Counted from the stretch's first letter, positions 1,024 through 37,944 are shown. The stretch is DNA of 60,525 nucleotides from Pseudomonadota bacterium (GCA_021778035.1 JAJYCY010000007.1:1-60525); one strand, 5' to 3'. Translations and numbers: made by a program. Notes: generated from the letters alone by a model not told the origin.

Positions 1024-1212
1024 GCGCGCATGATAACAAGCGCCCTGCCCGGGTGCGACGAACGGTCTGCCACTGCCACGCCGCCCTGTGCGGAAGCTGC
1101 CGCAAGGTCAAGAAATCGCAGCCGGCCCAACCTATTGTTATTTCGGAAGCCGGGAGGTACATTTCTTAGAAAAGAAAGACCACCCCCGCTGGTGCCCAGA
1201 GGAGACGGCTTA

Positions 1213-4556: not shown

Positions 4557-5236
4557 GGTCCCTGCGCCTGAAGGCGCCGGTTGTTCAGGTGGACGATGAA
4601 TAGCACGGCAAAGGAAAACAACACCAGTCCGGCGGACAGGATATGCGCACGCGTGTATTCGAGCGCTTCAACGTGGTCGTATATCGATATCGACAGCACC
4701 CGTGTTTTTCCGGGGATGTTGCCGCCGATCATGAGTACGACCCCGAACTCGCCAACGGTATGGGCGAACGCGAGCGTGAGCGCGGTGACCAGGCCACGGC
4801 GCGCCAGCGGCAGGGCGACGGTGAAAAAGCGGTCGACGGGGCCAGCGCCAAGCGTTGCCGCGACCCAAAGGGGACGCTCGCCGATGGCCTCGAACGCGTT
4901 CTGCAGCGGCTGTACCACGAACGGCAGCGAGTACAGCACGGATCCGATCACGAGTCCGGAAAAACTGAAGGCAAGCGAGCCGCCGCCGGCGGCGCGCCAG
5001 ACCCTGCCGATTGGGCCGGCGGGCGCCAGTGCGAGCAACAAATAAAAACCGAGCACGGTCGGCGGAAGCACCAGCGGCAGGGCGACCACTGATTCCACCG
5101 GCAACCTGAGGATCGAACGGGTACGGGCGAGCCACCATGCCAGCGGAGTGCCGATGAACAGCAGGATCGTCGTCGAGACCAGGGCGAGACGCAGGGTGAG
5201 CAGGACCGGAACAAGATCCGTCGCCAGCGTTTTCAT
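4553..5236 (-). CDS. modB: Molybdate ABC transporter permease ModB
   Basis: This is a 227-aa polytopic membrane protein of ModB/CysTW type with an EAA-like loop (FEAIGERPLWVAATLGAGP). It sits between modA and modC. Confidence 0.85.
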   Translation of the reverse strand: MKTLATDLVPVLLTLRLALVSTTILLFIGTPLAWWLARTRSILRLPVESVVALPLVLPPTVLGFYLLLALAPAGPIGRVWRAAGGGSLAFSFSGLVIGSVLYSLPFVVQPLQNAFEAIGERPLWVAATLGAGPVDRFFTVALPLARRGLVTALTLAFAHTVGEFGVVLMIGGNIPGKTRVLSISIYDHVEALEYTRAHILSAGLVLFSFAVLFIVHLNNRRLQAQGP

Positions 5237-6664: not shown

Positions 6665-6684
6665 AGGTGTGTGCCTCCCAGCAT

Positions 6685-6700
6685 ATTAGCAATCGCTAAT
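6685..6700. promoter_or_regulatory. Inverted repeat ATTAGC-N4-GCTAAT in a divergent intergenic region
   Basis: Read directly in an AT-rich patch between the start of the C_GCAxxG_C_C gene (6664) and the next plus-strand gene. It is a possible operator; no cognate regulator is visible. Confidence 0.2.
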
Positions 6701-6808
6701 GGAGATTATAGGTCTCACACGCGACAGCAGCCAATCCTTGAGCAATGGATATGCCCCGTGGTTACCGCTACCATCTTGCCCGTGGCTGAAGCTGCCAGCG
6801 AGGGCACG

Positions 6809-7480
6809 ATGGTGTCAAGGATTTTGACCGGACTGTGTTCCGGGTCCGGCGTGGCGGGCGCGCGCCGCGCGCAGAGTCGGCGTATCCTGGGGCGGGCGGT
6901 GCTGGTGCTGCTGGCTGCCACTGCTCCAGCAGGAAGGTTGCTGGCCGCCAACGCGGCCGCATCTGGTCCGGAAACCGGCCGGACCCGGACCGCCCGGCTG
7001 CTGCTACGCCGGAAAGGACTGTCTCTGCGTCTGGCGCCGCTTCCGGTCACTCTGACCGAGGCTTTTTTCCAGGGTCGCGGATTCACTGCCGCCGCTTCGC
7101 GGCAGATTGCGCAGACCTGTGTCTTCAAGGTGGTCGTACGGAACCGGTCGGCGGCCCGCGTCCTGAAGGTCAATCTCGCTGACTGGCGCGTGTCAGCCGG
7201 CGGTCACCGGCTGCCGCTACGACTGGAATCGGACTGGCGGCGCATCTGGATGCAGCAGCATGTGTCGCGGTCGCTGCAGATCGCCTTCCGCTACTCGCTG
7301 CTTCCCTCTGTGATGCAGCTCGGTCCTGCAGACTGGCTCCAGGGCATGGTGAGCACCGGCCTGGCCCCCGGCCAGCGGTTCAATCTGGATGTATACTGGT
7401 GGTACAGCGGTGTGCCGGAACACGCTTCGATGCACGCCCTGCGCTGTCCGCTACCCGCCCAGGAGATCCCGTCCCGATGA
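6809..7480 (+). CDS. Hypothetical exported protein (possible Tat-like signal), translationally coupled to the TlpA-like gene
   Basis: The first ATG in frame is at 6809. The N-terminus ...RRAQSRRILGRAVLVLLAATAPAGRLLAANAAAS shows twin arginines, a hydrophobic core and AxA. The stop overlaps the next start (ATGA at 7477-7480). I recognise no family. The start is uncertain; a GTG near 6850 is also possible. Confidence 0.45.
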   Translation: MVSRILTGLCSGSGVAGARRAQSRRILGRAVLVLLAATAPAGRLLAANAAASGPETGRTRTARLLLRRKGLSLRLAPLPVTLTEAFFQGRGFTAAASRQIAQTCVFKVVVRNRSAARVLKVNLADWRVSAGGHRLPLRLESDWRRIWMQQHVSRSLQIAFRYSLLPSVMQLGPADWLQGMVSTGLAPGQRFNLDVYWWYSGVPEHASMHALRCPLPAQEIPSR

Positions 7481-8037
7481 AACGCCGGGCTGCATGCACA
7501 ATCCTTGCCTCATTCTTCCTTGCAGCCATGCTGTTCTGGTGCGCCGGGCCAGCCGGCGCCGCGCCGTTGCATGCCGCTCCGGAATTTTCCCTCAAGGATC
7601 TCAACGGCAAGGTACGGCATCTCTCTGATTACCGGGGCAAGCTCGTACTCGTGAATTTCTGGGCCACCTGGTGCCCGCCATGCCGCAAGGAAATTCCCTC
7701 CATGGAACGTCTGTACCGCAAGTTCGGGAACCGCGGATTCGTGATCCTCGGTGTGGAGGAAGGAGAAGGATGGGCCGTGGTTGCGCCAGTGGCCGAGGAG
7801 CTGGGCATTACCTACCCGGTCCTGCTTGATCGTGACGGGTCGGTCAGCCACGAGTGGCATATGATCGGTCTGCCGACCAGTTACCTGGTCGATCCACGCG
7901 GTCGTGTGGTGAAAGAATTTGTCGGTGGCCGGAATTGGCTGGACCCGCAGCTGCAGGCGCAGCTGTTGCGGTTTCTGCCACCGCTTCCGTCGCGCAGGCC
8001 GGTCGCGCACGCTCCTGCGGCTGCTCCGTCGCGCTGA
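7477..8037 (+). CDS. TlpA/ResA-family periplasmic thiol:disulfide oxidoreductase
   Basis: MKRRAACTILASFFLAAMLFWCAGPAGAAP looks like a signal peptide, followed by the thioredoxin fold with FWATWCPPCRKEIP (CxxC). Confidence 0.8.
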   Translation: MKRRAACTILASFFLAAMLFWCAGPAGAAPLHAAPEFSLKDLNGKVRHLSDYRGKLVLVNFWATWCPPCRKEIPSMERLYRKFGNRGFVILGVEEGEGWAVVAPVAEELGITYPVLLDRDGSVSHEWHMIGLPTSYLVDPRGRVVKEFVGGRNWLDPQLQAQLLRFLPPLPSRRPVAHAPAAAPSR

Positions 8038-8158
8038 AGCGGACAGCGGCGACACGCCCCGCCGACGCCTGTCCCTCCGTCGCGCAGCTCCTGCGTGCAT
8101 CGTGCCGGGTTCCCGATGTTCCGCCAGTGGCAGGCCACGCGCATTGCTATAACTATAC

Positions 8159-8168
8159 ATATGCATAT
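8159..8168. promoter_or_regulatory. AT-only 10-bp palindrome ATATGCATAT in the AT-rich island just upstream of the giant ORF
   Basis: Read directly. It is embedded in TTGCTATAACTATACATATGCATATACGGAACAATGAGGAGACATG, i.e. ~20 nt upstream of the ATG at 8187 and next to the RBS GAGGAGA. This is a candidate promoter or operator. Confidence 0.25.
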
Positions 8169-8186
8169 ACGGAACAATGAGGAGAC

Positions 8187-11100
8187 ATGCGAACTTCGCC
8201 AGAAGTCCTCATCGTAGGGGCTGGACCTGCCGGAACTGCGGCGGCGCTGCGGTTGGCCCGCGCTGGCGTACCGGTTATGGTGATCGAAGGCGCAGAGTAC
8301 GCTGGCGCGGAGAACTGGTCGGGCTGCGTCTATCATGCCGACGGCCTGCTGCGTGAAGATGTGCTGGGCCGCGAACTGTGGCAGCAGGCACCGAAGGAGC
8401 GGCGCGTCGTCGTGCGCAGCCTGTTTGTGCATGATGGCATCAATGCCGCAGGTTTCGATGCCCGGGCGCACGGCGGCAATGATTTTGGCGAAGCATGGAC
8501 AGTCCTTCGGCCCAGGCTGGACCGCTGGCTGGCGAGCCGCGCCATTGGTGCCGGCGTCACGCTGATCACCGCCACCACTGTGACCGGTCTGCGCTACCAC
8601 GCGGACCGCGTCGTCGGCGTCAATACTGACCGTGGCCCGGTGAACGCCGGGGTCGTGTTTCTCGCGGAAGGTGACGCGGCGGGCCTGCTTGCGCGTGAGG
8701 GGCTGGAGCGCGCGCCCGCACCTCACTATGCCCAGGGCATCAAGGCGCTGTTCCGCCTGCCGCCGCCGCTGATCGAGCAGCGTTTCCGGCTGAATCCGGG
8801 AGAAGGCGCGGCCCAGGAGTGGCTGCTGCGCAATGGCCAGCTGGCCGGGCGGGTGGTGCCACTCAACATGACCGCCTTTCTCTATACCAACCACGACACC
8901 CTGTCGCTGGGGGTAGTGCTGCCGCTCGACCGCCTGGCAAAGGCCGGCGTGGCCGATCATCCGCACCTTTTCAGGCGTGTGTGCAGCCTGCCGGTCATCG
9001 CCTCCCTGATCGAGGGCGCGCAGCAGATCGCTTATGGTGCCAAGGTGATCCGGTCAGGAGGGCTGGACGAGACCCCGGACTGGGTACGCGACGGTCTGGC
9101 CGTCGGCGGTGGCTGTCTCGGTCTCGGACAGGAAGTCCCCTATCCGAATTTCATCGGTCCGGCGATCACCAGCGCCCTGGCATTTGCCGATGCAGTGCTG
9201 CGTCTGCGCCGCAGCGGTTCCCGCTACACGCGCGAGGATCTGCAACGCGAGTACGCCGATGCCTTGCGGGACACTCCTGATTTCCGCAATGCCAGGCTGA
9301 CGCGGCGCTGGCCGGCCGCCATCCATGGCGGGCCGGCCCTGTTTGACCATCTGCCGGCGTTTCTGGGGCAGATGGTCGACGCCGCCAGTCTGCCGCCGGA
9401 GCAGGGCCGGGCCCAGCGGCGGCGCGCGCTCGGCATGCAGCTCGCGCGTCTGCGCCGTGATCTTCCTCAGGCGCTGCGGCTCGCGCGTGAGCTGCGGCCG
9501 CGTCTGCGCTCGTCCCCGGGGACGCAGCCGCTGCAGGTACAGTTTCTCGAGGCACGGGGCGCAGCGCCACTGGAGCCGATGGTGCTGCGCGACGATCCGC
9601 TGCTGGCACTGGCAGCGACGGCCATCGGCCACTTTTACGGCCGGCGTCTGCCAGATCTGGCTGACCGCATGGCCATGATCTGGCGCAGCATGGCGGGTCT
9701 GCCGCGCGCGCTGCCACGTATCGGTAGTCTGGGGTTCGGGGCTCTCGGTGGCGGAGCGGCGTTGCTCGGTGACCTGACCCGGTACCGCACCGGACGTGTA
9801 ACACTCGGCGATCTGCTTCTTCGCCCCTACTATCGCTACGAGGAACGCGTGCGCCAGTGCCTCGACTGGGGTGTGGCGCACCGCAGCGCCGCGTCGCCCA
9901 CTGCCTGGATCGCACCGCTCGAGCGCTACCGTCCTGATCTCCGGCACGTGACGGTCCCCGTCGATCTTGGCGCCGGTGCCGGGCAGCTGTGCCATGTCTG
10001 TCCCGCTGAGGTCTATGCGCTTGCCGGGCCGCGCGGCGGAGTCGCAAGCCAGCATGAAAACTGCATCAAGTGCGAGTCCTGCCGCGTGACGGTGCCGGGG
10101 GTCGACTGGAACCGCAGCAGCAGCCATCGCTTTGCCTACCGCGTGCCGGGGGACTCCCGCAGCGGCCCGGATTCATCGGTGACCTCCACCCTGGAGGTGG
10201 ACGCGGACCGACTGTTTTCTCTGGATGATGCGCCGCGCTGCGCCTGGCAGCGCCTGTATCAGGCGCTGCACACACGCCCGGCCATGGTGACGGAGGAATG
10301 GCCGCGCACCTGGGCCGGGCTCATGGCGGAGTTGCCCGATGATGCGCTGACGCGCCCCCTCGTCGCGCGCCTGCATGCGTGGCTCGGGAGGCGTGCCTAC
10401 GGCTGGATGGAAACGGAGGTGCGTGCGCTGCTGCAGCAGGCACAGGCGCTGCCGGCCGATGTCCCCGCGGTGCGCGATGCGGCCGCGCAAGCCTTGCAGC
10501 GCGGCAGGGCGGAACGGGAGCACCTGAAAGCGGGGTTCCCGCCGCAGAAACTCGCGGCCCTGGCGCACGCGCCATGGGACCCGTCCGCGCGGGCTGCACT
10601 GTGCAGCTGGATCGCCGCGGCCAGAAGCCGGCGCGCCGAGGCGGTCGAGTGGCTCGCCGGCTGGTCCAGCGCGCTGGCGTGGATAGCCGCTGGCCACTAT
10701 GTCGCCGAGACCTGGGCCGGACATCCGATCGATGAAGTGCTGGCTGCCCCCTTGTGGCGCGAACAGGACGGCAGCTCCGGCTGGCTGTCGGCGGCGGCGC
10801 AGCGCCTGGTCGCACCGGACGGCAGTGTCAGCTCCGCCGGAGTGGTGGTTGCGCATGGCGCCGGACTCGATGCCGCGCAGCCGGTGCGCCGGCGCGTGGA
10901 CGGAACTGTGCAGGAATTTCCGGTGTCAGCCGTATTCGCAGAAATGACTGTTGCGCTGGCCTGCGGCCAGGCATCCGTGCTGCGGCGCCGGGCGCTGGAT
11001 TACGCGGCCACCCGCGTCCAGTTTCATGGTGAGCTGCGCGACTGCGAAGGCCGGGACAGCATCGCAAAATTCGGCATCGTGAAGCAGATGCTTGCCGGTG

Positions 11101-14100
11101 TGGAGCATGCCTGCATGCTGCTCGACCTGGCCCGGGGCTGGTGCGCGCGTGAGCCCGCCCAGGTGCTGCTGCTTGTGCGCGGGTGCATGGGTCCGTGGAT
11201 GGATGCCGTGCCGTGGCTTGCCGGACAGATCTTCGGAGGCATGGCGTACTCCGAGGAAGACATCCTGGCTCCCCGTTACCGTGACGCCATCCAGCTGAGC
11301 CAGTGGCCCGGGTCACGCGAAACCGGTACGGAAGATCCGGAGTTCGGCGCGCAGCTGATTGGCGCGATGCCGCTGCCTGGCCCGGGACGGGTGGTTGCTG
11401 ACGGTCTGCGCGGATTTGCCGAGGGACGCCAACGCATCCGCCGCCTGCGTCCGCCGACGGCGGAACCGCAGGGCCGGCGGATGCGCCCACAGCGTCCGCT
11501 CATCTGGGATGCGCATGCCAGCTTCGCGTACCTGAGCGGCAGTTTCCTGACCGGCCACCTGCTTGCCCCCGACGCACTGCTGGTGCCGGAGCACTTCCGC
11601 AGAGATCCGTCGCTGCGAAGCACGCGCGCCGGAGTCCTGAGACTGCTGCGGCGCGGTTTTCGCAGTCCGGACCGCAACGAACCCTACGGCCGTTATATCG
11701 ATTCGCTGCACGCGATGCCACAGGACGACGTCCAGCTGCTGCGGGAATTCAATGCGTTTGCGACCATCGTGCCCACCGGGCTCGGCGGCAAGGGCTGGAG
11801 CAAGGCGCAGTACTCGGTGCTTACCAATCTGTGCATGGGCGCGAAAGACACGGCCACCGGTCTGCTGATCATGGCGAGCACCAGCATCGGCACCATGCCA
11901 GTGCTGCTCGGGCGCGACAAGGACCTGCCGCGGTTGCGCCGCGAAATCGACATTTGTCTGTCGGACGCGCCGGGCTGGCAGGAGCTGCAGGATGGCATCG
12001 ACGAACTGCTGCGGATGATTGCGCATCCCGAGCCTGCCCGGATGCGCCGGATGCTTGAGCAGCTCGGCGCGGCAGTGCAGCGCATGATGCTTTTTCCCGG
12101 TTCGACGCTCAAGTACCTGGCGCGCGATTTCCTGCTGACAGTACAGCAGGTGGTGGATGCTGCAAAAAGCCATGACCTCGCGGCGCTCACCGGCAAGCTG
12201 CGTCAGTGCCGCGATGGCCTGCCGGCGCTGCGCAGCCGGTTTGCCGAGGAGCGGGACGAGGCCGGTGTCCGTCTGCGCGCGCACGACCGGTTCCTGCAGT
12301 TTCTTGCCTGCGGCCAGATCAGTGCCTTTGCGCTGACCGAACCCGCTGCCGGATCGGACACCGGTGGCATCCAGACGCGTGCGGTCCTGCATGAGGTGGA
12401 GGCGCAGCCCGACGGACCAGGCTTCTACCGGTTTACGGTTCCTGGTACGGCCCGGTCGCGCCTGCTGCTTGATGCCGCAAATCTGGTGTTCGAATCGCGG
12501 CGTGCGCTGTTCCGCATGCCGGATGGCCGCCTCGCCACGCTGGACGACAGCGACTGGGACATGGCGCGCAACAGCGGTGTGCGGCAGATCCGCATCGGTG
12601 ATCGCAGCTGGTCCTACGATGATATCGGTACCGTGGTCGTGCGCGACGGCAGGACGTACTACCGATACTGGGAACTGACCGGAAGCAAGATGTGGATCAC
12701 CAACGGTTCGATCGCCGACCGCTATTGCATCTACGCCCGGACAGCGGCTGGGGAAACCGGATTCATGCTGGAGCGGCGTTCCGAGGGTCTGCGCATCGGT
12801 CCGGACGAGAACAAGCTCGGCCAGCGCGCGTCGCCGACGAATGAGCTCAGGCTGGACCGGGTGCGTGTGAGCGCCGACCAGGTCATCGGCTTCGCCGGCC
12901 ACGGTCAGGTCAATGCGCTCGAGACACTCAGTGTCGGGCGCGGCGGGCTGGTGATGAGCTGCGCGACGCTGGCGGAGCGCGTGCTGCAGGAGTTTCTTCC
13001 GGTGTGGCGCCGCGACCCGCAGCTGCATGCCGTGGCACAGGCGGAGTGCGACCGCCTGCAGACGCTCGCCGCCCGTCTCGTCGGGCTGATGGACCGGGCC
13101 GACCTGGCGCGCGGTGATTTCCGCATCGAGGCGGCGCTGTCAAAGTACCTGGCTTCCGAGGGGGCGCACCGCATACTGGGCTGGCTCGACAGGCTGTATG
13201 GACCGGATGCTGCGGCCCGCGAGGTCATGCTCGAGAAATGGCGGCGCGACATCCGCATCCTGAACATCTATGAAGGCACCAACGAAGTCCAGCGTTTCCT
13301 GGTGCTCAAGGACCTTCCGGGCCTGGTGGGTGCATCCGCCGTCACGGTTGCGGACAATGCCCCGCTCGATGCCGCGCTGCGGACATTCCGGGAATTTGCA
13401 TCCGGACGCGTTGCGGCTTCCGGTTCCAGGGTGTGGCAGGATCCGGATCTTCAGGTCCGCTGGTTTCCTGTGGTTGACTGGGCGGCCGAGCTTTACGGCT
13501 GGGTGGCGCTGCACGAACGGATCCGCCTGCTGAAGTCCCTCGATGACCCTGCGGACCGCGCCGACATCGAGCGGCTGCAGGCCAGCGAAGCGAGCATCGC
13601 GCGCCATGTGCAGGACGTGGCCGCAATGGTGCGTGCCGAGTTCAGTCACACTGACCACGGCGAGGCGTGTTTTGCGGATGCTGCGCTGGTCCTGGCGCGT
13701 GCGGCGCTCCTGGCGCCGCCTGCCACCGAAGACCGGCCGGTCGCGGCAGGTGCGCCGGGCGGCGAATGGGCGGTGGTGCTGCGCAGCCGTTTCGAGCCGG
13801 CCGGTGAAGGACTTGCATGGGCCGGTTGGCATGCCGCGGATCTGGCAGTGCTGGACCGGCTGCTGTCCTGGTCAGACCGGTTTGCGGCGCTGCGGGTGAA
13901 AGTCGCCGCCGTAGGTCCGGACGGAATTGCCGACGCACTGCGCCGGCTGCAGGCGGCGGGGGCCGAAGTGCTGCATGTCGTGCAGCCGGCCGGTGCGGCC
14001 GGCATGGAAGCCGTAGCCCGGATACTCAGGCGTGCCTGGCCGCAGGTGCGGCGCTGGGCTTTCGGCCGTGATCCGGCGAGCCTTGGGGACCAGTGCCATG

Positions 14101-15518
14101 CGGCACATCTGGCGCAGCTGCTTAGTGCCGATCTGCTTGAGAATGCCACCGCGGTCGGACCGGCGACGCGCGGGCTGCGGGTGGAGACCGGGACCGGCAT
14201 CACGAAATTCATTGCCGCGCAGCGCGCCGTCGCATTTGCCTGGGCCTTGCGGGTCGACGGGCGTGCGGACCGGTTCACCATCCGGCAGTGGCTGGAGACA
14301 CTGCATGCACCGCCACCAGCGCACGAAGCCGCCGCCGGACCGGTGCCGGCTGGGGTGCGGATCATGACGCCGCGCAGAGCCGGAGATCTGCCCGAGCGGT
14401 TTGCTGACGCGCAGATGCTGGCTGACTGGCTGAGGGCGCGCTTCGGAGCTGGCGCGGTGCTGGATCGGCCAGCGATGACCCGCGCTGTCGATGCACCGCT
14501 GCCTGGCGGCAATCTCTGGATTACGGTGTCCGACGCACTGTCCGGTGCGAGCCGGTCGCCGGCGCTGCGCGCGATCGCGGGGCTTGAATCCCCTTTCGGT
14601 GTCCTGGCCTGGCACGCCTCCGGCCAGGAGCCCCGGCCGCCTTCGGTCATGCTGGGACAGGCCGGGTTTACGGGACTGTGGCAGCTGCCGCTGCGCGGCG
14701 GCGCCGCGCCGCCGGCAGCACTGGCCGCCGTGCTGGCCGCGCCTGCCGCCGGGCCGCATCGCATCGTCTTCGATGCTGACTATGCCGCGGTGGCTGCGGC
14801 ACTGGCCGCGCGCCTGAGGCTCCCGCTTTTCGAGGACGTGATCCGGATCGGTCCGGATGCCGTGACCAGCATGCGCGATGGCTACGAAGCCGATTATCCG
14901 TTGCCACAATCCGCGCTGCTCGTGATCAGCCGCTCCCTGGATGCTCCATCCCTGGTGACCCCGTCAGCGGCGCCGGTTGCGGTGTGCCATCTGCCAGCCG
15001 GGAGCCCCGCCAGTACGGCGCTCGAACGGTTGGCGGCACGGGCACCGGCCGGCGCCGGACTGTCATCGGCTGGCCTCATCGTCGATGTCGGTCTGGGCGC
15101 AGCGATCCTGCCCGGCCAAGAGCAGCTGGTTTCTTCGCTGTGTACGGCGCTGGCGCGGCTCAGCAACAGGGCCGTGGAAATCGGGGCGACACGCAAAGTG
15201 ACCCAGGAGCTCAAACTGCTGCAGACGGACCGCCAGATCGGACAGACCGGTGTATCGGTGGCGCCCGAGCTGCTGCTGGCGCTGGGCATTTCGGGTGCGC
15301 CCCAGCACATGGGATGGATCGACGCCGGCGCCATCGTGATTGCCATCAACCGCGATCCGGACGCTCCGATTTTCAGTTGGCCGAAGGAACATCCGGGGCC
15401 GCGTGTGATTGCCTGCGTCGGGGATCTGGAGGAATGGATACCGGCGCTGTTGCGGTCACTCGGTGCCGGAAGTGTCGCCGAGCCGGTGCAGCAGTCCACG
15501 CGCCCCGGTGTGGCATGA
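8187..15518 (+). CDS. Giant multidomain flavoprotein fusing FixC/ETF-QO-like, FixX-like ferredoxin, degenerate ACAD-like module, complete acyl-CoA dehydrogenase, ETF-beta-like and ETF-alpha-like domains (2,443 aa)
   Basis: A single ORF with no stop codon runs for 7,332 nt, with RBS GAGGAGA 6 nt before the ATG. Motifs read in frame, in order: (1) VLIVGAGPAGTAAALRLARAGVPVMVIE, a FAD Rossmann fold (aa ~6-34); (2) C602-HV-C605 ... C626-IK-C629-ES-C632, FixX-like (nt 9990-10082); (3) QIFGGMAYSEEDILAPRYRDAIQLSQWPGSRE, ACAD C-terminal-like but lacking the catalytic Glu (nt 11226-11321); (4) ALTEPAAGSDTGG, matching ACAD signature 1 (nt 12330-12368), then WITNGS and NIYEGTNEVQRF with the catalytic Glu (nt 13266-13295); (5) DLAVLDRLL...VKVAAVGPDGIADALRRLQAAGAEVLHVV, ETF-beta-like (from ~nt 13764); (6) ELLLALGISGAPQHMGWIDAGAIVIAINRDPDAPIF, the ETF-alpha FAD-domain signature (~nt 15270-15370). 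Confidence 0.8.
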   Translation: MRTSPEVLIVGAGPAGTAAALRLARAGVPVMVIEGAEYAGAENWSGCVYHADGLLREDVLGRELWQQAPKERRVVVRSLFVHDGINAAGFDARAHGGNDFGEAWTVLRPRLDRWLASRAIGAGVTLITATTVTGLRYHADRVVGVNTDRGPVNAGVVFLAEGDAAGLLAREGLERAPAPHYAQGIKALFRLPPPLIEQRFRLNPGEGAAQEWLLRNGQLAGRVVPLNMTAFLYTNHDTLSLGVVLPLDRLAKAGVADHPHLFRRVCSLPVIASLIEGAQQIAYGAKVIRSGGLDETPDWVRDGLAVGGGCLGLGQEVPYPNFIGPAITSALAFADAVLRLRRSGSRYTREDLQREYADALRDTPDFRNARLTRRWPAAIHGGPALFDHLPAFLGQMVDAASLPPEQGRAQRRRALGMQLARLRRDLPQALRLARELRPRLRSSPGTQPLQVQFLEARGAAPLEPMVLRDDPLLALAATAIGHFYGRRLPDLADRMAMIWRSMAGLPRALPRIGSLGFGALGGGAALLGDLTRYRTGRVTLGDLLLRPYYRYEERVRQCLDWGVAHRSAASPTAWIAPLERYRPDLRHVTVPVDLGAGAGQLCHVCPAEVYALAGPRGGVASQHENCIKCESCRVTVPGVDWNRSSSHRFAYRVPGDSRSGPDSSVTSTLEVDADRLFSLDDAPRCAWQRLYQALHTRPAMVTEEWPRTWAGLMAELPDDALTRPLVARLHAWLGRRAYGWMETEVRALLQQAQALPADVPAVRDAAAQALQRGRAEREHLKAGFPPQKLAALAHAPWDPSARAALCSWIAAARSRRAEAVEWLAGWSSALAWIAAGHYVAETWAGHPIDEVLAAPLWREQDGSSGWLSAAAQRLVAPDGSVSSAGVVVAHGAGLDAAQPVRRRVDGTVQEFPVSAVFAEMTVALACGQASVLRRRALDYAATRVQFHGELRDCEGRDSIAKFGIVKQMLAGVEHACMLLDLARGWCAREPAQVLLLVRGCMGPWMDAVPWLAGQIFGGMAYSEEDILAPRYRDAIQLSQWPGSRETGTEDPEFGAQLIGAMPLPGPGRVVADGLRGFAEGRQRIRRLRPPTAEPQGRRMRPQRPLIWDAHASFAYLSGSFLTGHLLAPDALLVPEHFRRDPSLRSTRAGVLRLLRRGFRSPDRNEPYGRYIDSLHAMPQDDVQLLREFNAFATIVPTGLGGKGWSKAQYSVLTNLCMGAKDTATGLLIMASTSIGTMPVLLGRDKDLPRLRREIDICLSDAPGWQELQDGIDELLRMIAHPEPARMRRMLEQLGAAVQRMMLFPGSTLKYLARDFLLTVQQVVDAAKSHDLAALTGKLRQCRDGLPALRSRFAEERDEAGVRLRAHDRFLQFLACGQISAFALTEPAAGSDTGGIQTRAVLHEVEAQPDGPGFYRFTVPGTARSRLLLDAANLVFESRRALFRMPDGRLATLDDSDWDMARNSGVRQIRIGDRSWSYDDIGTVVVRDGRTYYRYWELTGSKMWITNGSIADRYCIYARTAAGETGFMLERRSEGLRIGPDENKLGQRASPTNELRLDRVRVSADQVIGFAGHGQVNALETLSVGRGGLVMSCATLAERVLQEFLPVWRRDPQLHAVAQAECDRLQTLAARLVGLMDRADLARGDFRIEAALSKYLASEGAHRILGWLDRLYGPDAAAREVMLEKWRRDIRILNIYEGTNEVQRFLVLKDLPGLVGASAVTVADNAPLDAALRTFREFASGRVAASGSRVWQDPDLQVRWFPVVDWAAELYGWVALHERIRLLKSLDDPADRADIERLQASEASIARHVQDVAAMVRAEFSHTDHGEACFADAALVLARAALLAPPATEDRPVAAGAPGGEWAVVLRSRFEPAGEGLAWAGWHAADLAVLDRLLSWSDRFAALRVKVAAVGPDGIADALRRLQAAGAEVLHVVQPAGAAGMEAVARILRRAWPQVRRWAFGRDPASLGDQCHAAHLAQLLSADLLENATAVGPATRGLRVETGTGITKFIAAQRAVAFAWALRVDGRADRFTIRQWLETLHAPPPAHEAAAGPVPAGVRIMTPRRAGDLPERFADAQMLADWLRARFGAGAVLDRPAMTRAVDAPLPGGNLWITVSDALSGASRSPALRAIAGLESPFGVLAWHASGQEPRPPSVMLGQAGFTGLWQLPLRGGAAPPAALAAVLAAPAAGPHRIVFDADYAAVAAALAARLRLPLFEDVIRIGPDAVTSMRDGYEADYPLPQSALLVISRSLDAPSLVTPSAAPVAVCHLPAGSPASTALERLAARAPAGAGLSSAGLIVDVGLGAAILPGQEQLVSSLCTALARLSNRAVEIGATRKVTQELKLLQTDRQIGQTGVSVAPELLLALGISGAPQHMGWIDAGAIVIAINRDPDAPIFSWPKEHPGPRVIACVGDLEEWIPALLRSLGAGSVAEPVQQSTRPGVA

Positions 15519-15555: not shown

Positions 15556-16854
15556 ATGTCGGATGAAAAGGTGTTCGTCGTCGACGGGGCACGCACCCCG
15601 TTTCTGAAGGCACGGGGTCGGGCCAATGAGTTCAGCGCCGCCGACCTGGCGGTCGCGGCGGCACGGCCGGTCCTGGCGCGCGCGCCATTCGCACCGCAGC
15701 AGATCGATGAGGTCATCGTTGGCTGCGTGATTCCAGCGCCGGACGAAGCAAACATCGCACGCATCATCAGCCTGCGCCTGGGCTGCGGCAAGGCCGTTCC
15801 GGCCTTCACCGTACAGCGCAACTGTGCTTCCGGGCTGCAGGCGCTGGCAAGCGCGCGTGAACGCATCGCGCAGGGCCGCGCGCATCTGGTGCTGGCTGGT
15901 GGCACCGAGGCCATGAGCCGCGCGCCGATCCAGTGGAATGCGGCCATGAGTGACTGGCTTGCAGCGGTCATGCGGGCCCGCAATCCGGTCGCCCGTCTGC
16001 GCGCCATCGCCGGATTCCGGCCGTCCTTTCTCGTTCCGGTTTATGCGCTGCTGCTCGGGCTCACCGATCCGCTGGTGCAGCTCAACATGGGGCAGACCGC
16101 GGAGATCGTGGCCCACCGGTTCGGCATTGCCCGCGAAGAGCAGGATACCTATGCTCTCGGCAGCCACCAGCGTCTGGCCATGGCCTACAGCTCCGGCCTG
16201 ATGCGGGGGGAAATCGAGCCGATTTACGATTCGCGCGGACGCGTCTATCTCGAGGATACCGGACTGCGCCGTGATACCACCCTGGATCAGCTCGCCGGTC
16301 TGAAGCCGGTGTTCGACCGCAAATACGGTTCCGTGACCTCCGGCAACAGCTCCCAGGTGACCGACGGCGCGGCCATGCTCCTGCTGGCGAGCGAGACCGC
16401 TGTCCGCCGATACGGGCTCACGGTGCTCGGGGAACTGGTGGGCGAAGAGTGGGCCGGAGTCGATCCTGCCCAGATGGGGCTCGGACCGGTCCACGCCGTG
16501 TCGAAGCTGCTGGTCAGGTTCAATCTGCAGATGGGCGATATCAGGCAGATGGAGCTCAACGAGGCGTTCGCAGCCCAGGTGCTGGCATGCCAGTCGGCAT
16601 GGGACAGTCCCGAATACGCGCGTGACGAGCTCGGCATCAATACACCGCACGGCGCGGTGGACCGGTCGCGTCTCAATATGGAAGGCGGCGCGGTCGCGAT
16701 CGGTCACCCTGTCGGCGCGAGCGGGGCACGCCTCGTTTTGCACCTTCTGCGGTCGTTGAAGCACCACGGGGGCGGACTCGGAATAGCGACGTTATGCATC
16801 GGTGGCGGGCAGGGTGGAGCGATGCTGGTACGGGCAGGAGGAGGGCAGGCATGA
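15556..16854 (+). CDS. fadI: 3-ketoacyl-CoA thiolase, FadI-like
   Basis: RBS GAGGAGA precedes the ATG at 15556. Thiolase features are present: the active-site Cys context VQRNCASGLQALA and the C-terminal GGGLGIATLCIGGGQGGAMLV. An insertion (RARNPVARLRAIAGFRPSF...) and the WDSPEYARDELG... segment parallel E. coli FadI rather than FadA. The gene order, thiolase first, is as in fadIJ. Confidence 0.8.
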   Translation: MSDEKVFVVDGARTPFLKARGRANEFSAADLAVAAARPVLARAPFAPQQIDEVIVGCVIPAPDEANIARIISLRLGCGKAVPAFTVQRNCASGLQALASARERIAQGRAHLVLAGGTEAMSRAPIQWNAAMSDWLAAVMRARNPVARLRAIAGFRPSFLVPVYALLLGLTDPLVQLNMGQTAEIVAHRFGIAREEQDTYALGSHQRLAMAYSSGLMRGEIEPIYDSRGRVYLEDTGLRRDTTLDQLAGLKPVFDRKYGSVTSGNSSQVTDGAAMLLLASETAVRRYGLTVLGELVGEEWAGVDPAQMGLGPVHAVSKLLVRFNLQMGDIRQMELNEAFAAQVLACQSAWDSPEYARDELGINTPHGAVDRSRLNMEGGAVAIGHPVGASGARLVLHLLRSLKHHGGGLGIATLCIGGGQGGAMLVRAGGGQA

Positions 16855-18896
16855 GCATGAATCCGGAATTGGCCAACTGGCGCATGGAAGAGATCGATGA
16901 CACGGTCGTGCTTACGCTCGACGTGGCCGGACAAAGCTCCAACACGCTGTCCTCCGCGGTACTCGAGGAGTTCGATCGTGTCCTTGGCCAGATTGAGGGC
17001 CGGCCGCTGAAAGGGATCGTCATCCGGTCGGCGAAAACGAGGAGCTTCATCGTCGGAGCTGACGTTACCCAGTTCCGCACGATCAGTGATGCGATGCAGG
17101 CCACCGGCCTGGCCCGCACCGCGCAGGGTGTGTTCAGCCGCCTGGCACGATTGCCGTTTCCGAGCATTGCGCTGATCCATGGAAACTGCCTGGGGGGCGG
17201 GCTGGAGCTGGCCCTTGCGTGCACCTACCGCATCGCGCGCGAGGATGAAGGCACGCGTCTCGGGCTGCCGGAAGTGCGGCTCGGCATCCATCCCGGTTTT
17301 GCCGGGACGGTGCGGCTCCCGCGACTCGTCGGTGATCTGGCAGCGCTTGATCTCATGCTGACGGGCCGCAGCGTAAGCGCGCGCCAGGCGCTGGCTCTGG
17401 GTCTGGTGGACGAAATCGTCCCGGACCGCCACTTGCTGGATGCGGCGTACGCATTTGCTGCCCGCCACCCCCGTCCGAAGCGTGCCCCGTGGTGGAAGCA
17501 CGTGCCGTCGTGGTCGGTCCTGCGCAAGCCGGTCGTGCGCCTGCTGCAGCGCCCGCTGCGGAAGAAGGTCGATCCCGAGCATTATCCGGCGCCGTACCGG
17601 ATCCTTGATCTGTGGCGGCGTGCAGCCGCGCAGGATGCAGAAGCGCTGTCGCTCGGTGAGATGATGGTCAGCCGCACGAGCCGCAGCCTGGTGGACATTT
17701 TCCTGATCGGAGAGGAACTGAAACGCCGTGGACGCCGCCAGCCTCACGGTGTCACGCATGTGCACGTCATCGGTGCCGGTACCATGGGTGCCGATATCGC
17801 CATCTGGGCCGCGTTCAAGGGCTTCCGCGTGAGTCTCCAGGACCAGAATCAGGAAGCGCTCGCCCGCGCAATCGGCAAGGCGCACGGATTCTACCGGAAG
17901 AAGCTCCGCAAGCGGGCGGCCATCCAGGATGCCATGGACCGGCTGATGCCCGATACGAACGGCAACGGCCTGCGCCGCGCCGACCTTGTCATAGAGGCCA
18001 TCATCGAGAATGCCGATGCCAAGCGCGACCTGCTGAAGTCGGTGGAGGGCATTGTGCGCCCTGACACGCTGCTGGCGACAAACACCTCGAGCATCCCGCT
18101 GGAGATCCTGGGAGAAGCCCTGAAGGATCCATCACGCCTGGTCGGGCTGCATTTTTTCAACCCGGTGGCGCAGATGCAGCTGGTCGAGATCGTGCGCGGC
18201 AGACAGACGGGCGAGGAGGCTCTCGACCGTGCGCGCGCATTTACCGTGGCGATCGATCGTCTGCCGCTCGACGTACAGAGCAGCCCGGGATTTCTCGTCA
18301 ACCGTGTGCTCATGCCCTATCTCATCGAGGCAATGGTGATGGTTGAAGAAGGCGTTGCGATCGAGCAGATCGATCTGGCGGCGACCCGTTTTGGCATGCC
18401 GATGGGACCGGTGCTGCTCGCCGACACGGTAGGTCTCGACATCTGCCTGTCCGTGGCCGAAATGCTTGCCGTACCGCTCGGCATCCAGGTTCCGGAGCGT
18501 TTGCGCGAGACCGTCGCGCGCGGCAATCTGGGCAAAAAGTCGGGACGCGGCTTCTATGTTTTCGACAAGTCGGGGAGGCCGAAACGCAAGGCGGTCCGCA
18601 GGCACAGCGACGTTCCGGTCACGGAACGCATGATCCTGCGTATGCTGAACGGAGCTGTCGCCTGTCTGCGCGAGGGGGTGGTCAGCGACCGGGACGCGGT
18701 GGATGCCGGGATGGTCTACGGTACCGGATTTGCCCCTTACCTCGGCGGACCGATGCGCTACGCCGAAGCGCTGGGGGAAGTCGGCATTGCCAGCAGCCTG
18801 AAGCGGCTGGCGCATGAATACGGATCACGTTTTGATCCGGACGAAGGCTGGAGCCGGCCGGAACTTCTGTCACATCGCATGCTGCCGCAGGACTGA
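16851..18896 (+). CDS. fadJ: Multifunctional enoyl-CoA hydratase / 3-hydroxyacyl-CoA dehydrogenase, FadJ/FadB-like
   Basis: An ATGA overlap joins it to the thiolase stop. The N-terminal crotonase fold shows FIVGADV...HGNCLGGGLELALAC...GLPEVRLGIHPGFAGT. The central NAD-binding site is VHVIGAGTMGADIA, followed by HFFNPV and a C-terminal 3HCDH domain. Confidence 0.85.
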   Translation: MSMNPELANWRMEEIDDTVVLTLDVAGQSSNTLSSAVLEEFDRVLGQIEGRPLKGIVIRSAKTRSFIVGADVTQFRTISDAMQATGLARTAQGVFSRLARLPFPSIALIHGNCLGGGLELALACTYRIAREDEGTRLGLPEVRLGIHPGFAGTVRLPRLVGDLAALDLMLTGRSVSARQALALGLVDEIVPDRHLLDAAYAFAARHPRPKRAPWWKHVPSWSVLRKPVVRLLQRPLRKKVDPEHYPAPYRILDLWRRAAAQDAEALSLGEMMVSRTSRSLVDIFLIGEELKRRGRRQPHGVTHVHVIGAGTMGADIAIWAAFKGFRVSLQDQNQEALARAIGKAHGFYRKKLRKRAAIQDAMDRLMPDTNGNGLRRADLVIEAIIENADAKRDLLKSVEGIVRPDTLLATNTSSIPLEILGEALKDPSRLVGLHFFNPVAQMQLVEIVRGRQTGEEALDRARAFTVAIDRLPLDVQSSPGFLVNRVLMPYLIEAMVMVEEGVAIEQIDLAATRFGMPMGPVLLADTVGLDICLSVAEMLAVPLGIQVPERLRETVARGNLGKKSGRGFYVFDKSGRPKRKAVRRHSDVPVTERMILRMLNGAVACLREGVVSDRDAVDAGMVYGTGFAPYLGGPMRYAEALGEVGIASSLKRLAHEYGSRFDPDEGWSRPELLSHRMLPQD

Positions 18897-18898
18897 CC

Positions 18899-20635
18899 AT
18901 GCGGATCGCCATCGACGAACGGACCACGCTACCCGGGATTTTTCTCGCCCGCATTGAAGCCACGCCGGATTGGCCGGCCTACCGGCAGTTCCATCCCGCT
19001 GATGCCACCGCCGGTGGTCCGGCGCAGGGCGAATGGCGGGATGTGAGCTGGGCTGAAGTCGGACGCATGGCCGGGGTCTGGCGCGCTGCGCTGCGCCGGG
19101 AGGGACTGCAGGCCGGTGATCGTGTGGCGCTCTGCATGCGCAACCGGACTGAGTGGGTGCTGTTCGACCACGCGGCCCTCGGGCTCGGCCTGGTTGTGGT
19201 GCCGCTGTTCTACAACGACAGGCCGGAAAACATGGCCTGGTGCATGAATGATGCCGGCGTGCGCCTGCTGTTGCTCGAGGACGGGCAGCACTGGAGCAGC
19301 CTGCGTGGACAGATTCCGACGCTCGTGCGCGTGGTATGCCTGGGCGGCACGCCCAGTGGCGATGCGCTTGCTGTAGCGGTATCTGCATGGCTGCCGCCGC
19401 AAGGCGAAGCGCTTGATGCCGGCCCGGCGCGCGCCTCCGATCTGGCCACTGTGGTCTACACGTCAGGAACCACCGGGCGGCCCAAGGGCGTCATGCTCAG
19501 CCACCGCAATATCGCAAGCAATGTCAGCGCCTGCCTCGATGCGGTGCCTGTCAGGGGGGCTGGCGATCTGTTCATTTCCTTTCTGCCGCTTTCGCACATG
19601 TTCGAGCGGACCGTCGGCTGTTACCTGTCCCTGTGCGTGGGTGCGCAGACGGTCTTTGCACGGGGCGTCGCGGAACTGCCGGAGGACATCCTGAGCCAGC
19701 GGCCTACGCTGCTGGTCTGCGTGCCGCGGATCTTCGAACGCATTTATGCGCGGCTCCAGGAAAGCCTGTCGCCCGGTTCCTTCAGATGGAAGCTGTTCAC
19801 TCTGGCTGTGGAGGTGGGCTGGAGGCGGTTCTGCGGGCAGACGCGGTTTACGGACCGGCTTCTCTGGCCGCTGCTCGACCTGCTTGTGGCGCGGAAACTC
19901 CGCGCGAGGCTGGGCGGACGCGTCAGGCTGATCGTATCGGGTGCTGCCGCGCTTGCGCCGGATCTGTCGCGCACCTTCGTCGGTCTCGGCCTGCCGCTGG
20001 TTCAGGGCTACGGCCTCACCGAATTTTCACCCGTCGTGAGCTGCAATCGCCCCGGCGACAACGATCCGACCTCCGTCGGGCGCCCGCTCGACGGTGTCGA
20101 AATACGGTTTTCGGACGATGGGGAGCTGCTGGTGCGCGGTCCGGAGATGATGCTCGGCTACTGGAACAATATTGCCGCCACGCGCGCGGCAATCGACGCC
20201 GAGGGCTGGTTGCACACTGGCGACCTGGCGCGAATAAACAACGGCCGGCTTAACATCATAGGGCGTGCCAAAGAGATCATCGTGCTCAGCAATGGCGAAA
20301 AGGTTCCGCCGGCGGATATCGAACAGGCAATCCTGCTGGACCCCATCTTCAGTCAGATAATGCTGGTCGGCGAGGGCCGTCCCCATCTCGGCCTGCTCGT
20401 GGTGAGCGAAGTGTCCGACGTAGGCCTGCTCTGCAGGCACGCCAATGCCCAGCTGCGCACGTTTCCCGGTTACGCGCATATCCGCCATGTGGTATGCGTC
20501 AGCGAGCCGTGGACCATCGAAAACCAGCTGCTCACGCCGACACTCAAGCTGCGGCGCAGCAGGATCGAGGAGCGCTTCACCAGGGAAATCGATGGCATGT
20601 ACCGCGGAGTGGGTCCGGACTGCGGGTCGGACTGA
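18899..20635 (+). CDS. fadD: Long-chain-fatty-acid--CoA ligase (AMP-forming acyl-CoA synthetase)
   Basis: The AMP-binding motif VVYTSGTTGRPKGVMLSHRN is present, plus GYGLTE and WLHTGDLA. It starts 2 nt after the fadJ-like stop. Confidence 0.8.
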   Translation: MRIAIDERTTLPGIFLARIEATPDWPAYRQFHPADATAGGPAQGEWRDVSWAEVGRMAGVWRAALRREGLQAGDRVALCMRNRTEWVLFDHAALGLGLVVVPLFYNDRPENMAWCMNDAGVRLLLLEDGQHWSSLRGQIPTLVRVVCLGGTPSGDALAVAVSAWLPPQGEALDAGPARASDLATVVYTSGTTGRPKGVMLSHRNIASNVSACLDAVPVRGAGDLFISFLPLSHMFERTVGCYLSLCVGAQTVFARGVAELPEDILSQRPTLLVCVPRIFERIYARLQESLSPGSFRWKLFTLAVEVGWRRFCGQTRFTDRLLWPLLDLLVARKLRARLGGRVRLIVSGAAALAPDLSRTFVGLGLPLVQGYGLTEFSPVVSCNRPGDNDPTSVGRPLDGVEIRFSDDGELLVRGPEMMLGYWNNIAATRAAIDAEGWLHTGDLARINNGRLNIIGRAKEIIVLSNGEKVPPADIEQAILLDPIFSQIMLVGEGRPHLGLLVVSEVSDVGLLCRHANAQLRTFPGYAHIRHVVCVSEPWTIENQLLTPTLKLRRSRIEERFTREIDGMYRGVGPDCGSD

Positions 20636-21611: not shown

Positions 21612-21725
21612 TGTAAGGCATAAAATGCGGCCTTCGCCATTGCGCTGCTGTGCCAAAGCTGATGGAATTCCCGGCATGTCGCCCGGCCAACCGGACCGGG
21701 CGGTGTTCTGTGGAGGGGTTCGGAA

Positions 21726-23480: not shown

Positions 23481-23494
23481 GGGAGCATTACATC

Positions 23495-24184: not shown

Positions 24185-24206
24185 AACGGGACGGCAGCGG
24201 CAACCC

Positions 24207-37943: not shown

Positions 37944-37944
37944 C

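Follow-up and report, generated by a model that had tools for sequence, protein, structure and literature searches.

A single reading frame joining FixC-, FixX-, acyl-CoA dehydrogenase- and electron-transfer-flavoprotein-type modules, a proposed one-chain acyl-CoA:quinone oxidoreductase

Acyl-CoA dehydrogenase (ACAD), electron-transfer flavoprotein (ETF) and ETF-quinone oxidoreductase (ETF-QO) represent the textbook case of electron transfer via transient complexes with a swinging flavin domain. Joining of ETF subunits has been described for SaETF of Sulfolobus acidocaldarius, a monomeric, bifurcating fusion of EtfB and EtfA with two FAD, and genes encoding ACAD, ETF-QO or FixCX were reported as neighbors of fused ETF genes, not as parts of the fusion (PMC12042025). 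Furthermore, division of labor between subunits is known from α2β2 ACADs, in which the isoalloxazine site, the substrate site and the catalytic Glu all belong to the α-subunit and the role of the β-subunit is limited to binding the ADP-ribose of FAD (PMC11153573). The present study addresses an open reading frame (ORF) at positions 8187..15518 of a 60,525-nucleotide DNA stretch (hereafter the window) from a Pseudomonadota bacterium (GCA_021778035.1, JAJYCY010000007.1:1-60525), whose product combines modules of all these partners, which usually make up four or five individual proteins, in one polypeptide (hereafter the giant protein). The giant protein is probably a self-contained, membrane-associated acyl-CoA:quinone oxidoreductase for the first oxidative step of fatty-acid beta-oxidation. 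The ORF, its ribosome-binding site (RBS) and the modules recognized in its product are located as follows:

8179..8184, plus strand: Shine-Dalgarno sequence GAGGAG, 2 nt before the ATG of the giant ORF
8187..15518, plus strand: whole ORF, fused FixC-FixX / pseudo-ACAD / ACAD / EtfB-EtfA, 2,443 amino acids (aa), ATG start
8187..9386, plus strand: FAD flavoprotein module of the FixC / ETF-QO type (aa 1-400) with a putative site for quinone, from NCBIfam, AlphaFold2 (AF2) and Foldseek
9387..9932, plus strand: family-specific insertion (aa 401-582) separating FixC from FixX, long helices in the AF2 model
9720-9776, plus strand: hydrophobic Gly/Ala-rich helix (aa 512-530), putative monotopic membrane anchor, from hydrophobicity comparison across the family
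9933..10151, plus strand: FixX / ETF-QO-type ferredoxin module with one predicted [4Fe-4S] site (aa ~583-655), from a PDB profile search
10227..11441, plus strand: degenerate ACAD-like module, termed pseudo-ACAD (aa ~681-1085), from a PDB profile search and the alpha-beta-alpha order in AF2
11607..13328, plus strand: catalytic ACAD, VLCAD/ACAD9-like (aa ~1141-1714), predicted base Glu1696 in IYEGTNEVQ, from Pfam, PDB profile and Foldseek
13359..13709, plus strand: helices following the ACAD core (aa ~1725-1841), counterpart of the additional C-terminal domain in VLCAD-type enzymes
13752..14516, plus strand: ETF beta-subunit module with degenerate nucleotide-binding loop (aa ~1856-2110), from a PDB profile search
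14544..15476, plus strand: ETF alpha-subunit module (aa ~2120-2430), from Pfam, NCBIfam and PDB profile
15060-15374, plus strand: ETF-alpha FAD domain (aa 2292-2396) within the ETF alpha-subunit module

Translation of the ORF revealed a stop codon only at its end. A previous sequence-only reading of this DNA had described a single stop-free ORF with an RBS, and the ORF listing, the translation and the GAGGAG motif upstream of the start codon agree with this description. Likewise, the motifs quoted at that time were all located at their residues, namely the Rossmann motif (aa 10-34), CHVC (aa 602-605), CIKCESC (aa 626-632), ALTEPAAGSDTGG (aa 1382-1394), IYEGTNEVQ (aa 1694-1702), LALGISGAPQHMGW (aa 2364-2377) and AINRDPDAPIF (aa 2386-2396). 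Profile or structure searches returned the modules FixC, FixX, degenerate ACAD-like, VLCAD-like ACAD, ETF-beta and ETF-alpha from the N- to the C-terminus. The six modules claimed to share one frame were accordingly recovered in the expected order by means of Pfam, NCBIfam, PDB profiles and Foldseek, and profile hidden Markov model searches detected the ETF, ACAD and FixC/X domains. Pfam matches of the giant protein comprise Acyl-CoA_dh_M, Acyl-CoA_dh_1, ETF_alpha and FAD Rossmann families. A NAD(P)H or ferredoxin module was not found among its Pfam and NCBIfam matches, and NCBIfam holds no dedicated model for the giant fusion.

A join of separate genes through misassembly or a frameshift error, or a frame that stayed open by chance in GC-rich DNA, is of negligible probability. 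The GC content of the ORF (68-69%) lengthens spurious frames on other strands. However, the chance of 2,443 stop-free codons, as calculated from the base composition of the window, is approximately 4e-29, and the GC contents at codon positions 1, 2 and 3 of the giant ORF (0.75/0.53/0.77) resemble those of a coding frame. The second-longest stop-to-stop frame within the 60.5 kb comprises 989 codons. Furthermore, a check for assembly and frameshift errors revealed the same protein in two further assemblies, which represent near-identical strains, namely on an ENA contig of 98.7 kb and on a Logan contig of 7.8 kb. Within the ORF, 15 differences from the window were counted on the ENA contig and 7 on the Logan contig, 14 and 6 of them at third codon positions; the sole other change (nt 9973, second position of codon 596) is common to both assemblies. 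For the entry P0001, an identity of 100% had been reported; because of the change in codon 596, it seems to deviate from the window protein at a single residue. Since the differences are located nearly exclusively at third positions and are spread from nt 8873 to 15410, purifying selection acts on the frame across all junctions.

A search of 5.8 billion protein clusters yielded at least 278 relatives of the giant protein. Almost all of the best 120 relatives are 2,260-2,800 aa in length and feature the same Pfam set, with the closer ones covering 98-100% of the query. Moreover, a scan of GTDB species representatives identified 75 loci encoding relatives in Acidiferrobacterales, other Gammaproteobacteria, one metagenome-assembled genome of Alcaligenaceae, Verrucomicrobiota, Nitrospirota including Leptospirillia, Acidobacteriota, Planctomycetota (Gemmataceae) and Gemmatimonadota, in total at least six phyla. 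In 53 loci a full-length, uninterrupted ORF of 2,250-3,010 aa was present, in which all seven segments are colinear; the only strongly length-variable segment is the one matching window aa 660-1160 (413-797 aa). Based on full-length conservation in many independent assemblies and on almost exclusively synonymous strain differences, a frameshift or open-frame artefact is excluded. The fusion is real and represents neither an assembly nor a GC artefact, and the latter had already been judged unlikely before homologues were available.

The sources of these proteins annotate them in general terms ('FAD-binding protein', 'acyl-CoA dehydrogenase family protein' or, at JGI, 'electron transfer flavoprotein-quinone oxidoreductase'), and none of the listed relatives carries a functional name. 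The assignment presented here would correct the annotation of hundreds of proteins of 2.3-3.0 kaa labeled 'FAD-binding protein' or 'acyl-CoA dehydrogenase family protein'. A published description or biochemical test of the full fusion was not found in open-access papers and bioRxiv, in agreement with the earlier statement that no example was known, and the only published fusion of this kind encountered in the same literature is the monomeric EtfB-EtfA. As far as we can tell, neither the fusion as a whole nor the asymmetric ACAD pair within one chain, the insertion bearing a hydrophobic helix or the broad spread among uncultured phyla has been described; the parts and the chemistry of the fusion are already known.

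Assignment of the dehydrogenase function is based on the catalytic ACAD module. Its Pfam matches Acyl-CoA_dh_M and Acyl-CoA_dh_1 are above the cut-offs, and the Acyl-CoA_dh_N match is weak. In the PDB profile search, the best sequence matches were VLCAD (4e-61), followed by CarC, ACAD9 and Bcd, and Foldseek returned VLCAD/ACAD9 as best structures (TM 0.67-0.70, normalized to target length); the three-domain alpha/beta/alpha order was seen in the AF2 secondary structure. Compared with VLCAD, the module contains two insertions of about 120 and 90 aa, one helical (aa ~1243-1365) and one beta-rich (aa ~1401-1492). Invariant residues were called, here and below, from alignments of 24-30 family sequences that are 28-70% identical. 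Glu1696 of IYEGTNEVQ aligns with VLCAD IFEGTNDIL and is invariant in 30 sequences, and the motifs TEPxAGSD, WITNG and YEGTNE are invariant as well. The helical extension following the ACAD core, seen as helices H1058-1174 of the AF2 model of aa 668-1865, carries the invariant residues F1760 and R1778.

The region upstream of the catalytic ACAD had been considered an ACAD C-terminal-like module; its ACAD relationship was retained, whereas in fact a whole degenerate ACAD-like module with alpha-beta-alpha architecture is present, for which AF2 predicted the order helices, short sheet, helices. A profile of aa 660-1165 matched VLCAD (2.4e-9), the Thermus ACAD 2z1q (residues 137-501; 8.5e-9) and Bcd 1buc (1.3e-7) in the PDB, the region of the second ACAD-like match being given as aa ~880-1160 in the PDB profile search. 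Pseudo-ACAD keeps the invariant residues R943-V-Q945-F946 and G-Q1014-I-F-G1017-G1018, which correspond to RTQF and IQIMGG of VLCAD in the alignment. The catalytic Glu motif is absent, with an unconserved 'SQWPGS' located opposite VLCAD IFEGAND. Since its similarity to ACADs is significant but the Glu motif is replaced, pseudo-ACAD is interpreted from its sequence as ACAD-derived and not as a dehydrogenase. A single-sequence search with pseudo-ACAD against 1.84 billion representatives resulted in 64 matches, nearly all of which are giant proteins or fragments thereof, and provided no new relatives or names; the module is thus specific to the giant proteins.

Both FAD-contact motifs acting in trans (R-x-Q/T-F and Q-x-x-G-G) are unconserved in the catalytic ACAD and kept in the upstream pseudo-ACAD. 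Because these complementary motifs match the division of labor in solved α2β2 ACADs, the two modules are proposed to form an alpha-beta ACAD heterodimer in cis. The AF2 model of aa 668-1865 (pLDDT 83.1, pTM 0.80) aligns over approximately 770-800 columns with whole chains of VLCAD, ACAD9, 3owa and 2z1q (550-590 residues), and its pTM is consistent with a fixed mutual packing of both ACADs. Such a heterodimer would pair each ETF and quinone reductase with a single ACAD active site and suggests a route to asymmetric ACADs of the alpha-beta type by duplication and fusion. An internal ACAD duplication was also sought by hhalign, with no significant match between the two profiles; homology of pseudo-ACAD to ACADs is based on the PDB profile search.

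The N-terminal module represents the quinone-reductase side. NCBIfam FixC (PRK10157) matched aa 7-391 at 2e-44 and the YdiS-type model PRK10015 matched at 2e-43, with scores of 152 vs. a cut-off of 610 bits and 149 vs. 466 bits, respectively; on the ETF side, PRK11916 and PRK03363 scored 47 vs. 528 and 45 vs. 549 bits. Since these scores are far under the equivalog cut-offs, the giant protein is classified by sequence as a relative, not an orthologue, of E. coli FixC/YdiS and FixB/YdiR. The AF2 model of aa 5-700 (pLDDT 84.8, pTM 0.86) was best matched in Foldseek by FixC of the Thermotoga FixABCX complex (7koe_C; E 2e-26, TM 0.82, rmsd 2.7 Å), followed by porcine ETF-QO (2gmh; E 7e-20, 731 aligned columns, rmsd >10 Å). 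GxGxxG and many other FixC residues are invariant across the family alignment. For the FixX module, the family profile matched FixX 7koe_D (6.6e-6) and ETF-QO 2gmh (7e-3), both aligned on CPAxVY...NCxxCxxC. In alignments of 30 and 24 sequences, C605, C626, C629 and C632 are the only invariant Cys residues, and therefore one cluster is predicted, as in ETF-QO; of the Cys cluster previously assigned to FixX, these four residues were upheld, whereas C602 is not conserved.

The helical insertion between FixC and FixX was analyzed for a possible membrane contact by comparing the highest 19-residue Kyte-Doolittle (KD) window of the whole protein. In most family members the protein-wide KD maximum (2.0-2.8) is located at the aligned insertion position, corresponding to aa ~520-550. 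Values of 2.3-2.8 were determined for the insertion segments of loci L013, L016, L022, L027, L029, L045, L050, L053 and others, e.g., IVLPAFGALLVLLALVTAL and FLDLLLVLPALVLIGFLLV, and these orthologue segments are far more transmembrane-like than that of the window. In the clade of the window, the insertion segment is weaker (KD 1.3-1.9). Since a membrane-spanning insertion helix would separate FixC and FixX across the membrane, a monotopic or re-entrant anchor is proposed as the putative function of this helix. Transmembrane anchoring of the window protein was considered and rejected: a convincing transmembrane segment is lacking, and the KD maximum of 1.74 resides within a Rossmann strand. 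It was the comparison across the family alone that drew attention to the FixC-FixX insertion.

In the C-terminal part, a profile of aa 1710-2443 detected ETF-beta chains at positions 156-400 (1e-22 to 1e-10) and ETF-alpha chains (7koe_B, 1efv_A) at positions 425-781 (approximately 3e-35); ETF-beta alone matched 4kpu_B (4e-23) and 1efv_B (1e-16). The ETF-alpha module was additionally recognized by Pfam ETF_alpha (4e-14, 52.8 bits vs. a 27-bit cut-off) and by NCBIfam ETF-alpha models matching aa 2173-2425. Its FAD site contains the invariant residues R2336, which we take to be the Arg equivalent to human αR249 (residue numbering being assumed), QIGQTG (2350-2355) and SGAPQH (2369-2374). Where 4kpu_B has the beta nucleotide loop RQAIDGDTAQVG, the window shows a degenerate FGRDPA-SLGDQCH and the L005 clade a deletion, and a partial D-T-x-Q-G loop remnant is kept in several members from Acidobacteriota and Planctomycetota. 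A conserved beta nucleotide site, occupied by AMP in canonical ETF and by a second FAD in bifurcating ETF, was not found in the window, and the family alignments contain no invariant residue between aa 1778 and 2300. The degenerate EtfB loop argues for simple, not bifurcating, electron transfer in the clade of the window.

The genomic context of the giant gene was inspected in the window and in related loci. The giant ORF is preceded by a conserved element and followed by three genes:

8144..8176, plus strand: AT-rich element TTGCTATAACTA...TATACGGAACAAT, conserved upstream of orthologues, candidate for a promoter or operator
15556..16854, plus strand: thiolase of 432 aa with its own GAGGAG RBS, starting 37 nt past the stop of the giant ORF
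16851..18896, plus strand: FadJ/FadB-type enoyl-CoA hydratase / 3-hydroxyacyl-CoA dehydrogenase, ATGA overlap with the thiolase stop
18899..20635, plus strand: fatty-acid-CoA ligase (AMP-binding), 2 nt after the stop of the FadJ-like gene

The thiolase (Pfam Thiolase_N/C) is FadI-like and exceeds the cut-off of NCBIfam PRK08170 (647 bits). For the FadJ/FadB-type protein, Pfam ECH_1, 3HCDH_N and 3HCDH were found together with NCBIfam FadJ (6e-163, below cut-off), and the ligase is supported by Pfam AMP-binding (3e-76), with all NCBIfam FadD-type ligases below their cut-offs. The ATGA overlap (16851-16854) and the 2-nt gap before the ligase suggest translational coupling through the operon. As deduced from these matches, the giant ORF and the three downstream genes encode a complete beta-oxidation cycle. 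The four-gene order is kept in ten Acidiferrobacterales-type loci with giant proteins that are 42-70% identical, and thiolase and/or FadB genes also flank the giant gene in four distant loci (L023, L024, L068, L072). Conserved neighbors outside Acidiferrobacterales were searched for and none was found, the gene being mostly stand-alone there. Directly before the RBS of the giant gene, in a region of approximately 68% GC, the upstream element TTGCTATAACTATACATATGCATATACGGAACAAT is located. Its flanks TTGCTATAACTA and TATACGGAACAAT are conserved in L001, L004 and L009, where they directly precede the orthologous genes with a spacer that differs by about 6 nt, and the window copy includes the palindrome TATGCATA. 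The element may serve the operon as promoter or operator.

From the observed domain identities, their order, conservation and motif pattern and from the operon, we infer activity, direction, substrate range, cofactor content, pseudo-dimer, membrane anchoring and quinone acceptor of the proposed oxidoreductase as follows. A fatty acyl-CoA, probably of medium to long chain length, would bind to the VLCAD-like ACAD module, where Glu1696 would take the alpha-proton and the ACAD FAD would accept the hydride. Pseudo-ACAD would act as the partner subunit of the ACAD dimer in cis and contribute the Arg-x-Gln-Phe and Gln-x-x-Gly-Gly contacts to the ADP part of the ACAD FAD. Single electrons would then move to the FAD of the C-terminal EtfB-EtfA module, from there to the [4Fe-4S] cluster of the FixX-like module and the FAD of the FixC-like module, and finally to quinone at the membrane surface, where the hydrophobic helix of the FixC-FixX insertion may hold the enzyme. 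Three FAD and one [4Fe-4S] cluster per chain are expected, and the downstream thiolase, FadJ/FadB-like enzyme and acyl-CoA ligase would complete the cycle. The degradative direction is favored because the operon carries an acyl-CoA ligase, and the proposed wiring of ACAD, ETF and ETF-QO within one chain gains support from the conserved synteny with thiolase, FadJ-type and ligase genes.

Several observations weigh against this interpretation. The Pfam ETFQO_UQ-bd match at aa 230-288 is weak (E 0.054) and the FixC score is far below the equivalog cut-off, so that the acceptor is deduced from the fold. The insertion segment of the window itself, IGSLGFGALGGGAALLGDL, reaches a KD value of only 1.29. 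Comparison of pseudo-ACAD with the true-ACAD family profile by hhalign was not significant (probability 0.8, E 0.067), and the suggested cis pseudo-dimer is derived solely from motif complementarity and pTM. Moreover, most genomes outside Acidiferrobacterales lack beta-oxidation genes beside the giant gene, which in the examples from Nitrospirota, Verrucomicrobiota and Leptospirillia stands alone among unrelated genes. Many hosts belong to lithoautotroph-like lineages, for which a role of fatty-acid oxidation is not obvious.

Other interpretations of the same modules have to be considered in this context. In a variant considered rather unlikely, the electron path would be as proposed but start from something other than an ordinary straight-chain fatty acyl-CoA, for example an acyl thioester that is bulky, branched, hydroxylated or linked to a carrier. 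The two ACAD insertions, which are family-specific, and pseudo-ACAD would then shape a special site as in steroid side-chain alpha-beta ACADs, and the gene stands alone in most phyla; outside this family, a design resembling a heterodimer is known from ACADs that degrade steroids and have enlarged pockets (PMC11153573). However, neighbors in the window and in its relatives are of the generic FadI/FadJ/FadD type and not steroid, aromatic or amino-acid catabolic genes, and the ACAD module is best matched by VLCAD/ACAD9 and by butyryl-CoA dehydrogenases. Operation in the reverse direction, as a (mena)quinol-dependent enoyl-CoA reductase for reverse beta-oxidation or lipid/PHA-related synthesis with the thiolase and the FadJ-like enzyme condensing and reducing, appears improbable. 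All ACAD-ETF-ETF-QO steps are reversible in principle, the best model of the thiolase is 'acetyl-CoA C-acetyltransferase', many hosts look autotrophic, and E. coli ydiO/ydiQRST homologues have been used in reversed beta-oxidation (PMC10318755). On the other hand, the last gene of the operon codes for an enzyme of the degradative route, a fatty-acid-CoA ligase activating free fatty acids, and the giant protein contains no NAD(P)H or ferredoxin module to drive the reaction. Furthermore, ubiquinol (approximately +90 mV) cannot reduce enoyl-CoA (approximately -10 mV) without energy input, and Gammaproteobacteria of the type represented by the window normally use ubiquinone, which also speaks against the reverse direction.

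The giant protein could also be a bifurcating or confurcating enzyme resembling Fix/EtfABCX, with a second, bifurcating FAD in ETF that would link the acyl-CoA/enoyl-CoA and quinone reactions to NADH or to a low-potential carrier such as ferredoxin or flavodoxin. The nearest relatives of three modules originate from bifurcating systems (FixC and FixX of 7koe; EtfB of 4kpu and CarD), loop remnants are kept in the Acidobacteriota and Planctomycetota members mentioned above, and low-potential reductant is required by several host lineages, which are lithoautotrophic. Such a function is nevertheless very improbable for the window protein: the EtfB loop is degenerate in its clade and deleted in that of L005, invariant residues are missing in aa 1778-2300, and the FixX Cys ligands suffice for one cluster only, as in non-bifurcating ETF-QO. 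A ferredoxin, flavodoxin or NADH-binding partner is not encoded nearby among the window genes, as judged by their domains. The degenerate loop, the single Fe-S site and the missing NAD(P)H/ferredoxin module together argue against Fix-type bifurcation. More speculatively, deep-branching members with EtfB loop remnants might still bifurcate electrons.

Based on this evaluation, acyl-CoA:quinone oxidoreductase is retained as the most probable function of the giant protein. Beyond this, the balance tips slightly towards an undescribed class of respiratory dehydrogenases, namely one-chain acyl-CoA:quinone oxidoreductases with three FAD and one [4Fe-4S], an in-chain ACAD heterodimer and their own anchor, that would replace the diffusible ACAD/ETF/ETF-QO relay in uncultured representatives of at least six phyla. 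If true, the whole electron path from substrate to quinone would be kept within one molecule. A natural one-chain fusion would provide a stoichiometrically defined single particle for cryo-electron microscopy and for kinetics of ACAD-to-quinone transfer. As a 'Rosetta stone', the fusion would tie FixCX-type proteins functionally to acyl-CoA oxidation, and it implies that lineages usually deemed lithoautotrophs (Acidiferrobacterales, Nitrospirota, Leptospirillia and others) may pass fatty-acid electrons to the quinone pool. Moreover, a one-gene acyl-CoA:quinone module, or its reverse, could serve pathway engineering.

Further genes of the window were recorded. Just downstream of the operon, 20661-21677 (minus strand) encodes the L3 Gln methyltransferase PrmB, followed at 21726-22793 (plus strand) by an Old-Yellow-Enzyme (OYE) family NADPH dehydrogenase that is NamA-like and also resembles the N-terminal part of FadH-type dienoyl-CoA reductase. 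Synteny of OYE and PrmB was also observed in L001, L004 and L009; the OYE protein is possibly auxiliary to unsaturated fatty-acid oxidation. Immediately upstream of the giant gene, a TlpA/ResA-like thiol:disulfide oxidoreductase is encoded at 7399-8037 (plus strand; 69-75% identity in relatives), and the ORF at 6671-7480 (plus strand) is without Pfam or NCBIfam match, showing 50-59% identity in the closest relatives. In the region 22848-26699, a GDSL lipase/thioesterase gene (minus strand) is divergent from genes for an ABC ATPase and an FtsX-type permease (plus strand), an arrangement known from E. coli as tesA-ybbA-ybbP. A 773-aa GGDEF-domain protein with a weak and partial GGDEF match (211-2532, plus strand), a protein with a full diguanylate cyclase (GGDEF) domain (27974-29218, minus strand), an ABC ATPase with TOBE domain plus permease resembling a ModC/ModB-like molybdate or sulfate-type importer (3480-5236, minus strand) and the usual NfeD-stomatin pair, composed of an NfeD membrane protease-like protein and, after it, an SPFH/Band-7 protein (36570-38706, plus strand), were also found. 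The remaining window genes are chromosomal house-keeping genes: rho, purD, purH, dusB, hemF, mdh and the malic enzyme gene.

Compared with known systems, the giant protein contains the same redox modules as the chain of separate ACAD, EtfAB and ETF-QO subunits of mitochondria and many bacteria (1efv; 2a1t for MCAD:ETF; 2gmh), and by inference its electron path is alike. Both have in common the Glu in YEGT, the ETF-alpha FAD motif with its Arg and a single CPA...CxxCxxC [4Fe-4S] site as in 2gmh. In contrast to the separate chain, the giant protein carries quinone reductase, ACADs and ETF, in this order, on a single polypeptide; its quinone reductase is nearer to FixC plus FixX than to ETF-QO and is split by a helical insertion of approximately 180-240 aa, and its ETF-beta nucleotide site is degenerate, unlike that of canonical ETF. 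With respect to the parts list, E. coli YdiO and YdiQRST with FadI/FadJ/FadK are a closer equal than the mitochondrial and bacterial ACAD, EtfAB and ETF-QO (PMC10318755), and so are CaiA and FixABCX. YdiO and YdiQRST (with FadK and FadI/FadJ) as well as CaiA and FixABCX share their parts with the giant protein and its operon, namely an ACAD and proteins resembling EtfB, EtfA, FixC and FixX, in association with beta-oxidation enzymes of the FadI/FadJ type and an acyl-CoA ligase. However, these systems consist of five separate genes, whereas the giant protein is one chain that scores far below the equivalog cut-offs, features a VLCAD-like ACAD with an added pseudo-ACAD and has only one Fe-S site.

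Fix/EtfABCX of Thermotoga maritima (7koe) provides the best match for the N-terminal module (7koe_C) and FixX (7koe_D) and a top match for ETF-alpha (7koe_B), but is a four-subunit bifurcating NADH:quinone/ferredoxin enzyme without ACAD, whereas the window protein contains ACADs and lacks the conserved EtfB loop. SaETF has the same beta-then-alpha order as the giant protein; there, only the ETF subunits are joined and no ACAD/FixCX fusion was described. The motif division of labor between the two ACAD modules resembles that of mycobacterial ChsE4-ChsE5 (FadE26-FadE27) and ChsE1-ChsE2. ChsE-type enzymes are composed of two separate subunits, act on steroid side chains and use free ETF; in the giant protein the modules are joined with the non-catalytic one first and would pair in cis. 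Furthermore, VLCAD/ACAD9 and bacterial VLCAD-like ACADs (3b96, 8phf, 3owa, 2z1q) are the best ACAD matches, including the extra C-terminal helical domain, and unlike these enzymes the ACAD of the giant protein carries two large insertions, lacks the trans FAD-contact motifs and is fused on both sides.

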